The notes: generated by a model not told the origin, from the letters alone. Shown: positions 5,474 to 7,467, counted from the first letter of the whole stretch. The stretch: 61,669 nt of DNA, filler included, from Stramenopiles sp. TOSAG23-6 (GCA_900128565.1; 14 parts of 14 records of this genome joined end to end with filler, not necessarily neighbours in it); one strand, 5' to 3'. Made by a program: numbers and translations.

Positions 5474-7467
5474 ATGGCGGCAAGGGGGGTTTTACAAAAT
5501 CCATCTCTACAAATGAGGCTAAAGTCAATTCATTCTTGCCAGCGTTCATTATCTTTCAATTGTAGTCTAACTAGAAAGTCGCAACGATATAGCTTATCAA
5601 CATATGATTCTTGCAGCCGTTCGTTGGCATCATCTACGTCTTCTTCGGCACCAATTTCGTCTTCTCCATTTTGTGTGACTTCACCAATATTTTATGTAAA
5701 TGCTGCACCTCATATTGGACATTTATTTACTGTACTTTTATGTGATTTTTCTGCTCGCTGGTCTAGGCTCAAAAATAAGCCTACTTTATTTTGCACGGGA
5801 ACAGATGAACATGGTCAAAAGGTACAAGAAGCTGCTGCATTGAATAATCAATCGGAGGAAGAATTTTGCAAAGAAGTATCATCGAAGTTTCGTAATGTTT
5901 TTGATGCTTTTGACATTTCTTATGATGATTTCGTGCGAACGACTGAGCCAAGACACGAAGCAACTGTTGTTGAATTTTGGAAAAGGCTTGAAAATAAAGG
6001 CTTTATATATATGGGACTTCATGAAGGTTGGTATTGTACATCAGAAGAATCTTTTTTGACTGAAAGCCAAGTGGTCAACGATGTAGATTTTAAACGAAAG
6101 AAAAAAAATGGAGCTGAAGATAATAATATTGCAAGCAAAACATCGAATAAACAATCGAATAATATTGTTAAAAAAGTATCAGCTGAGACAGGACAACCCG
6201 TAGAATGGGTTAAAGAAGAAAATTTAATGTTTCGCTTATCTAAATTTCAAAAACCACTTCTTAATTGGATTGAAAAAAATCCAAACGTAATTCAACCAAA
6301 ATCGCGTCGTAATGAAGTTAGGTCATTCATTAGTCAAGGTTTACAGGATATTTCAGTCTCTCGTAAAAGTGATAAAGTTAGTTGGTCTCTTGGGGTTCCT
6401 ACCCATGATGAACATAATGTGTATGTGTGGNNNNNNNNNNNNNNNNNNNNNNNNNNNNNNNATTATTTGACGACTACAGTCGGTCCATCGCTAGATTGTA
6501 CAGATAACCCTAACCCTACTGCACAATTTTGGCCTGCTTCTGTTCAAATTGTTGGAAAAGATATTTTACGTTTTCATTGTGTATTTTGGCCTGCATTTCT
6601 GATGGCTGCAGGGTTGAATGTTCCTCAAAAAATAATTGCACATGGGCATGTATGTTTTATTATTTTTTTTTTAATTTTTTTAATTTTTTTTTTCGTACGA
6701 AATTTTGTACCTAACAAAAAATTTAGATTTTTTTTTGAAATATTTTTCCAAAATACATTGGACAGTTGATCGAATTAAAATGAGTAAAAGTATAGGTAAT
6801 GTTGTTGATCCCATGGACTTATTAAATAACTATGGTGTTGACCCAATTCGATACTTTTTACTACGAGATGGTGGTTTAGGTACAGATGGGGATTTTTCAG
6901 AGAAAAAATTGGTACAGCGTCTTAATTCTGAATTGGCGGACTCGTTGGGAAATTTACTATCTCGCTGCACGGCTCCGGCATTATTACCACCTCCATTAAC
7001 TGATAGTATACATAAGTTTGTAGTTCCCACCCCACAAAGTAGATCTGAGTTCACTTCGTCTGATGTGGAATTATTTGATCACCTTGAGGAATTGCCTGAT
7101 AACGTGGCACTGTGTTATGATGCGCTAGATATTGNNNNNNNNNNNNNNNCTACTCTTAGAAACACTCAATATGACTAATCGATACTTTGCACAATATGAA
7201 CCTTGGGCACTTGTGCCTGGAAAACCTTTGGAAGATTCAATACGTTTAGCTACAGTGATGTATTTAACACAAGAATCTATTCGAGTAGTTGGAATATTAC
7301 TACAACCTGTTATTCCATCCTCTTCAGATAAACTTCTAAATCATTTAGGTATTCCAAGGTCAGAAAGAAATATTGAATTTGTAAATAGCCGAGGTCGTCT
7401 TCGAGCTGGAAATCCTCTCGGATTTTCAACAAAGAAAGAAAAGTGCATTTTATTTAAGAAGATGTAA
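5474..7467 (+). CDS. MARS2: Methionine--tRNA ligase, organellar (mitochondrial-type)
   Basis: N-terminal presequence; [15 protein letters not shown] (HIGH motif), [16 protein letters not shown] and KMSKS; one intron at 6650-6758; two internal N gaps. Confidence 0.93.
6650..6758 (+). mobile_element. Repeat-family intron, GT-AT
   Basis: Restores [15 protein letters not shown]. The nearest AG (6764-6765) gives a frameshift and a stop before KMSKS. Confidence 0.93.

Follow-up and report, generated by a model that had tools for sequence, protein, structure and literature searches.

An introner-like insert with a predicted GT-AT splice in a methionyl-tRNA synthetase gene of Stramenopiles sp. TOSAG23-6

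A gene for methionyl-tRNA synthetase (MetRS) of Stramenopiles sp. TOSAG23-6 (GCA_900128565.1) carries a 109-nt insert, which was analysed together with the whole stretch of DNA around it, here called the window (61,669 bases). The window consists of contigs of about 4.4 kb each, arranged in falling length order and joined by linkers of the form N44-TTAATTAATTAA-N44, so that adjacent pieces are unlinked in the genome. Its DNA is AT-rich (G+C 22–42% per 2 kb), and the MetRS gene is located on the piece 4439–8773. This stretch occurs in two small DNA runs as well as in seawater and marine metagenomes and metatranscriptomes. The seawater run X2 covered 30 of 30 bins and spans intergenic DNA and the intron of a neighbouring gene, which is kept in its record 2; X2 therefore behaves as DNA. 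Cover in the RNA runs was sparse (7 of 30 bins in X5, 5 in X7 and 5 in X8), and the parts which they leave uncovered are uninformative. Two public proteins were used for comparison. P0001, the EukProt entry 'GSMAST32.ASY1.ANO1.200.1 assembled CDS', is the best protein match and the gene model of this same MetRS locus, and P0002 is the closest true homologue. The parts of the gene and of the insert are the following.

5474–6649, plus strand: MetRS exon 1, 392 codons, with a presequence-like N-terminal extension and the catalytic domain up to ...IIAHGH
6647–6649, plus strand: left CAT of a 3-nt direct repeat and final codon of exon 1; the insert-free X2 record 3 has a single CAT
6650–6758, plus strand: introner-like element copy, 109 nt; best nhmmer family match E 7e-19; absent from X2 record 3
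6650–6655, plus strand: donor-like 5' end GTATGT (family consensus GTAYGT)
6654–6655, plus strand: second GT, a weak alternative donor (GTTTTA) used by the public model P0001
6691–6702, plus strand: 12-nt perfect palindrome TTTCGTACGAAA within the core of the element, present in most copies and matched by nhmmer on both strands
6707–6715, plus strand: branch-point-like box GTACCTAAC, near-invariant columns; candidate branch A at 6714, at a distance of 44 nt from the 3' end
6725–6726, plus strand: internal AG, out of frame with GT 6650; paired with GT 6654 it adds 12 residues in frame
6737–6758, plus strand: conserved 3' block GAAATATTTTTCCAAAATACAT, whose final three letters are the right CAT repeat (6756–6758)
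6759–7134, plus strand: first part of MetRS exon 2, PF09334 positions 321–390 (E 1.3e-17), KMSKS at 6777–6791
6764–6765, plus strand: exonic AG, the acceptor in P0001
7135–7149, no strand: 15-N run, which exceeds the true length by one base
7150–7467, plus strand: MetRS C-terminal anticodon-binding part, stop TAA at 7465–7467; same as the tail of P0001

Exon 1 matched the Pfam profile PF09334 at positions 2–320 of 391 (E 8.8e-78), and the named best protein matches were mitochondrial MetRS of oomycetes and fungi (43–49% identity; about 46% for the best mitochondrial or oomycete MetRS). The aligned translation contains PHIGH as well as the KMSKS motif, and the match of the anticodon-binding domain in the C-terminal part is weak (PF19303, E 3.9e-4, under the curated cut-off). 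Judged from its sequence, the host enzyme is treated here as an organellar, bacterial-type class I MetRS. The gene had been described in the initial annotation as otherwise intact. This holds for the remaining open reading frame (ORF), and needs qualification at the N run 7135–7149, which is spanned by an apparent +1 frameshift. In the DNA-like run X2, whose record 3 crosses this region, there is one base fewer at 7149 and the frameshift is gone. Because the N run is one base too long compared with X2, the apparent frameshift is a matter of assembly.

The letters at the joint read GCA CAT GGG CAT (6647–6649) / GTATGT (6650–6655)...AAAATACAT (to 6758) / TGG ACA GTT GAT CGA ATT AAA ATG AGT AAA AGT. 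The letters and coordinates that had been reported for the locus were correct, including the GTs at 6613/14 and 6620/21, the AG at 6764/65 and KMSKS at 6777–6791. Retention of the insert shifts the frame (109 = 3 × 36 + 1). When the 109 nt were removed, the PF09334 profile was contiguous over the joint (2–320, then 321–390); because the two halves abut at 320/321, exact removal restores an unbroken MetRS domain. The alignment of exon 2 to P0002 begins at P0002 residue 337, and across the joint 15 residues of P0002 are letter for letter those of the exact-removal product, which is the outcome of the alignment to MetRS orthologues that had been proposed as a check. Moreover, the tryptophan at position −6 from KMSKS was surveyed in the 120 best homologues, 90 of them with a KMSKS-type motif and 30 of them without a match to the regular expression. 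It was found in 89 of the 90 motif-bearing homologues, the sole exception being the public model of the same locus. Finally, a natural haplotype lacking the insert joins 6646 to 6756 (see below). The observation is real and goes beyond chance, and the initial claim that a working MetRS would require exact removal of the 109 nt is well supported by this contiguity of the profile, by the conserved tryptophan, by the identity to P0002 and by the insert-free haplotype. Three further searches were made: the 24-nt core of the element had no match in a metagenome contig collection, a protein-guided scan of such contigs gave 55 loci, all at ≤66% identity and none a close relative, which were left unused, and near-identical short proteins bridging the MetRS joint were absent at E ≤ 1e-20.

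In X2 record 3 (912 nt), 6646 is joined directly to 6756 and exactly 109 nt are missing, so that a copy is present or absent at an otherwise same site, as is expected of introners. Since a sampled natural population, represented by the DNA-like run X2, holds MetRS without the insert, the insertion is recent and polymorphic. The trinucleotide CAT stands at 6647–6649 and again at 6756–6758 and makes the boundary ambiguous by 3 nt, with the registers GT-AT, TG-CA, AT-AC and CA-TA yielding an identical product. Because these registers are indistinguishable, the MetRS copy alone cannot prove GT-AT, and the locus is not the decisive single case for GT-AT that it had been taken for: AT-AC is equally valid there. 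A homopolymer error in the T9 run (6728–6736), which would bring GT 6650 and AG 6726 into frame, was considered as well and rejected in view of the insert-free haplotype and of a profile without an 11-residue insertion.

What had been missed initially is that the insert belongs to a mobile, introner-like family of high copy number. An nhmmer profile built from the insert gave 65 matches at E ≤ 0.01 in the 61.7 kb, among them a few double matches to both strands of the palindromic core, and the box GTACCTAA has 53 exact matches in the window, counting both strands. The summed word depth over 6614–6758, which measures repetition and not copy number, was 29,286 in X2 and 3,154 in X5, compared with 6–11 in the adjoining X2 bins. 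The depth of the element, thousands-fold above its flanks in the DNA-like run X2 as well as in the RNA run X5, shows that its repetition is very high. Many contigs from other loci match the element and then diverge from the window at 6758–6761. Similar intron-sized copies are present in unrelated genes of this one genome, as is typical of introners; the hosts are MetRS, an ankyrin-repeat gene, a casein kinase II beta gene and unnamed ORFs.

Of 24 copies delimited by hand, 19 were aligned; the five omitted were a duplicate, a divergent copy and three composites, each of the latter built of two or three core modules. All 19 share the block order GTAYGTTTT, T-rich stretch, TTTCGTACGAAATTTTGTACCTAAC, T run and GAAATATTTTTCCAAAATACAT, and the shared blocks far exceed splice signals in length. 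The family consensus is GTAYGT...TTTCGTACGAAA...GTACCTAAC...ATACAT. The 5' GT was found in 19 of 19 copies, and the last two letters were AT in 14, AG in 3, CT in 1 and TT in 1. The 5' end therefore belongs to those recognised for introners (GT, GC, GA or AT), whereas the prevalent 3' end, AT, lies outside the recognised AG or AC. The branch-like box is located about 35–47 nt from the 3' end across the family, and we take it to have a branch role from its likeness to UACUAAC. The two ends of the element share approximately GTAT...ATAC only, and a terminal inverted repeat exceeding about 4–8 nt is not clearly present. Directly in front of the GT, 9 of 19 copies have the dinucleotide AT (background 0.104, p = 5e-5). 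Folding of the insert as a single copy was no better than that of shuffles (z = −0.66), and RNAalifold found 0 consensus pairs in the 19 copies, so that end pairing of the type described for Amoebophrya was not seen. The lack of an end-pairing hairpin fits removal driven by spliceosomal signals rather than by structure. The family is not matched by the GTAAGT...ACAG intron of the neighbouring HSP90-family gene, which is apparently an ordinary one and was placed solely by the ORFs of that gene.

Three composite copies on the minus strand (44198–44413, 55294–55449 and 56201–56336) contain two or three tandem TTTCGTACGAAATTTTGTACCTAAC modules with one 5' end and one 3' end. The regions 11500–13195 and 52000–57300 are ORF-poor and hold many partial copies consisting of the core module only, often beside long A/T runs. 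Since these partial copies occupy stretches without long ORFs, the family extends beyond coding exons. On the contig 17716–22034, element copies with their flanks at 18711–19062 (minus strand) recur inverted at 21729–22034 (plus strand), an arrangement that suggests an inverted chimera formed during whole-genome amplification.

The effect of removing each copy exactly, from its GT to its end, was assessed on the reading frame. Among the 24 hand-delimited copies, 18 scored as compatible with the frame, compared with one third expected by chance (P(≥18/24) = 3.6e-5), and two further copies, which bring the total to about 20, were compatible on inspection, namely 21430 (a tie, 166 versus 167 codons) and 18810 (which runs to the stop of the gene). 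The spanning ORF was longer on the sense than on the antisense strand of the element for 20 of 24 copies. An in-frame AG occurs within 40 nt of nearly all copies; because ORF logic alone therefore cannot separate exact removal from canonical splicing elsewhere, the argument rests on the conservation of MetRS and on the periodicity of the ankyrin repeats. The ankyrin-repeat gene (Pfam Ank families), on the minus strand, contains seven copies in about 2 kb and is the strongest individual test. Removal of all seven by the same rule gave one ankyrin-repeat ORF down to the stop, with the repeats intact over the joints. The most informative of these joints is junction 2, with the following copy.

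19945–20037, minus strand: element copy at ankyrin junction 2, ...ATAG / GTACGT...ATATAT / GTGCAA

Exact removal at junction 2 leaves a 33-residue repeat with the helix motif GKIGAIRYLVKAGS, as in the uninterrupted repeats of the same gene. The flanks permit only the registers GT-AT, TA-TG and AC-GT, and both GT-AG and AT-AC are impossible. The family as a whole, and junction 2 in particular, is stronger evidence for a 3' end that is neither AG nor AC than the MetRS copy.

A further test on a conserved protein, the product of the casein kinase II beta gene, failed because the sequence after the copy 43821–43909 is not the expected next exon. Its exon at 43380–43820 (plus strand, Pfam profile 1–127 of 182) stops exactly at the element copy; the next exon that would be expected is not on the contig, which terminates in a long T run.

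The MetRS insert is probably one recent copy in a family of spliceosomal introners whose 3' end is not AG. The host is an AT-rich marine stramenopile, and the element is very abundant, mobile, AT-rich and short (about 90–120 nt). It would supply its own splicing signals, which are the strong donor GTAYGT, a T-rich body, the core TTTCGTACGAAATTTTGTACCTAAC with its branch-like box, and then a T run followed by the conserved 3' block ending in ...AAAATACAT. Most likely, the major spliceosome would cut at G6650 and after T6758, so that exactly the inserted unit would leave the pre-mRNA; the 3' end would be AT instead of AG, and the mRNA would equal that of the insert-free gene. The upstream AG would have to be passed over, with the cut site set by the sequence of the element itself or by the distance from the branch. 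The GT-AT splice is a plausible prediction that the family supports better than the MetRS copy, and we infer from these comparisons that removal occurs at the RNA level, that the spliceosome is its agent, that the register is GT-AT and that the element moves in one of a few ways. The short direct repeat, mostly AT, at about half of the copies fits a 2–3-nt target-site duplication or a target preference, and three modes of movement are conceivable: such a duplication, a preference for AT targets, or the insertion of precisely the unit that is spliced. The wider proposition, that an introner with a standard 3' AT has colonised a free-living marine stramenopile at about one copy per kb and that its major spliceosome routinely splices GT-AT beside GT-AG, has in our estimation an even chance of being correct.

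The RNA runs bear on this interpretation in part. The match of X5 record 15 (309 nt) to the window extends only from 6756 rightwards, with 34 unplaced letters before it, and its break is that of the insert-free contig. The record is only consistent with splicing. For the initially proposed check by RNA across 6649/6759, this break at 6756 is the only hint, and the joint itself is not shown by RNA of the same strain. Exon 2 sequence is also represented among the RNA contigs of X7 and X8. A joint 6720>7505 in X5 (side 21, one contig) was ignored since it lies in low-complexity sequence.

Several observations weigh against splicing of the element at GT-AT. In the sparse runs X5, X7 and X8, no read or contig holds the spliced joint from an insert-carrying strain. 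X5 record 15 disagrees with the window at two positions (6828 and 6833) and may derive from an insert-free strain, and X5 may contain DNA, because it also covers the intergenic stretch 5141–5451. The AG at 6725/26 is just 12 nt past the branch-like box, and a scanning spliceosome would be expected to reach it first. We know of no precedent from work on yeast or human for pairing of G and U as the first and last bases of an intron. Four of the 24 copies (3716, 18452, 55449 and 56336) are incompatible in frame, and among the compatible ones 21729 is weak because its right flank is a second copy of the 19061 flank, on a contig that looks chimeric, and 44413 because only 3 codons precede the end of the contig. 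The copy at 43821 is weak as well, because the ORF downstream of it does not continue casein kinase II beta as expected. For most copies there are canonical in-frame alternatives that lose or gain few codons. Finally, 10 of 19 copies, one of them a CT/CT and one an AG/AG case, have the same two letters in front of the 5' end as at the end of the element; 4,211 of 100,000 shuffles did as well, which is only a weak excess of the flank/end match over shuffles.

Exact removal might also take place in the AT-AC register, with an intron at 6648–6756 (ATGTATG...AAATAC) processed like those rare AT-AC introns that the major or the minor spliceosome removes. At MetRS the CAT repeat is compatible with this register, and 7 of the 19 aligned copies have AT before the GT together with AC at −4/−3. 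A first A and a last C are a known workable combination, and the box TACCTAAC bears a faint resemblance to the U12 branch consensus. The register is formally possible for the MetRS copy alone, whereas it is unreadable in 12 of 19 copies and is excluded at ankyrin junction 2, and only 9 of 19 copies have AT in front of the GT, which itself is present in all of them. Furthermore, the 5' end is GTAYGT and not the U12-type ATATCC, and a U12-type branch is located roughly 10–20 nt from the 3' end, compared with about 44 nt for the box at MetRS. The 5' end (AT)GTATGT and the distance of 44 nt hence do not agree with a U12-type AT-AC intron, and removal in this register is unlikely.

Canonical splicing, by GT 6654 with AG 6764/65 or with another AG, would obey the GT-AG rule and lead to an altered MetRS, the insertion being tolerated or mildly harmful. 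The initial annotation had held that no canonical pair rescues the frame. That part of it has to be withdrawn, as five in-frame GT/GC-AG pairs are available at the insert, for example GT 6654 with AG 6764/65 or with AG 6725/26. The first of these pairs is the one read by P0001, which has V-F in place of W-T-V at the insert; it costs the tryptophan kept by nearly all homologues and uses the weak donor GTTTTA, 4 nt inside the consensus GTATGT. P0001 is also garbled near the N run 6431–6461 and, compared with the window at 5474–7467, drops two homologous in-frame exon segments of 16 and 35 residues, for which reason it looks forced and not transcript-based. Forced GT-AG models appear to damage this proteome. 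Moreover, canonical splicing leaves the in-frame exact removal throughout the family unexplained, and we regard it as improbable for the MetRS insert.

It is quite improbable that the insert is not removed at all and that the window holds a fresh null allele, masked by a second allele or copy or carried by an unfit cell, with the copies being ordinary transposon insertions. An intact insert-free haplotype does occur in nature, the evidence for splicing is not direct, and the assembly is fragmentary and chimera-prone. However, the copies preserve the frame and the remaining MetRS ORF is intact; with about one copy per kb, mostly in sense orientation within long ORFs (20 of 24), most genes would be null. 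Excision of the element from DNA in some nuclei or life stages, like the eliminated sequences of ciliates and with the insert-free contig as the processed form, would agree with the exact absence in a DNA-like run and the short direct repeats at the ends, but is very improbable, as the ends are not TA-bounded, the element bears a donor as well as a branch-like box, the insert-free contig differs from the window elsewhere too, as a different strain would, and the family is present at thousands-fold depth in the DNA-like run X2, so that the copies are not eliminated globally.

The insert and its family can be compared with known systems. Introners are reportedly the subject of work by Huff et al. 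from 2016. The sections on introners in two surveys describe those of Micromonas, Aureococcus, dinoflagellates, haptophytes and others (PMC9860276, PMC12130899). As far as these sections describe them, the present family resembles the surveyed introners in consisting of near-identical short intron-sized copies in unrelated genes that are AT-rich relative to the exons, in an mRNA left unchanged by insertion and (here predicted) removal, in differing in presence and absence between strains, and in its short terminal direct repeats (PMC9860276, PMC12130899). Like the Chrysochromulina type shown in Fig. 2C of one survey, it brings along a 5' splice site (PMC9860276). The 3' ends accepted in the sections cited are AG and AC, unlike those of the present family, in which the consensus ends in AT and AG is found in 3 of 19 copies (PMC12130899). 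No literature was found that links introners to MAST-type stramenopiles or GT-AT to introners, although the supplementary species tables of PMC9860276 and PMC12130899 could list the lineage, and unusual introns are not discussed in the main texts of three MAST genome papers, where the word 'intron' occurs 2, 0 and 0 times.

Non-canonical introns and introner elements are also reported in part of a study on Amoebophrya A25 and A120 (PMC7789003). According to that part, these resemble the present case as repeated intronic elements of a marine protist with non-GT-AG ends, and their direct repeats of 3–5 nt overlap the exon/intron boundaries and make the borders ambiguous, as the CAT repeat does here (PMC7789003). 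The Amoebophrya elements are described there as having inverted repeats of 8–20 nt that form an end-joining hairpin and no conserved terminal dinucleotides, with no U1 detected (PMC7789003). In contrast, the present family has an invariant GT, a conserved branch-like box and no predicted end pairing (PMC7789003 for the comparison). In the larvacean Fritillaria borealis, a genome-scale departure from GT/AG is handled by the major spliceosome, according to the portion of the report that deals with splice sites (PMC13326754). The same portion mentions introns ending in 3'AC or 3'AT and U-rich tracts in related genomes, implicates divergent U2AF paralogues in 3' recognition, and invokes introner transposons with weak splice sites in its discussion (PMC13326754). 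Unlike in this animal, where as described the 5' end departs from GT too, ordinary GT-AG introns seem to coexist with the element here (PMC13326754).

If splicing at GT-AT is true, the family would be a natural system in which the choice of the 3' splice site is uncoupled from the AG rule. Confirmation by RNA would establish that a mobile element has produced GT-AT introns as a class on the scale of the genome. The ways in which introners are known to recruit splice sites would be extended, and a natural test bed would be available for a second splicing step that chooses sites without AG. In a widespread lineage of ocean grazers, intron gain would thereby be shown to outpace the canonical splice code. 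Public gene models that force GT-AG would then be systematically wrong for this lineage. Because the public MetRS lacks the invariant tryptophan and two segments, reference proteomes from predictors restricted to GT-AG are likely corrupted at element sites, which affects the metatranscriptome annotation and the phylogenomics that use them.

The window contains further features outside the MetRS gene. Rfam gave zero matches within it. A full-length, uninterrupted phosphoenolpyruvate carboxylase ORF of 986 codons is located at 26707–29667 (plus strand, Pfam E 8.8e-272), and the contig adjoining its piece holds a 1,426-codon ORF with a bacterial cadherin-like domain. Telomere-type blocks, (TTAGGG)2–3 or its complement, occur at about 25 scattered places in 60 kb, some of them within coding sequence. 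The positions of the linkers and of part of these blocks are given below.

4339–4438, 8774–8873, 13196–13295 and onward, every ~4.4 kb: linkers
320–333, 4057–4069, 6505–6518, 11737–11752, 12066–12080, 12703–12719 and 30064–30078: telomere-type blocks
44786–44800, 47789–47813, 51383–51397, 54481–54497 and 57702–57716: telomere-type blocks, continued (partial list)

The coding blocks of this type encode NPNP, and the block in MetRS (6505–6518) is also present in the insert-free contig. Repair of breaks by telomerase and another small mobile unit are both possibilities for their origin.

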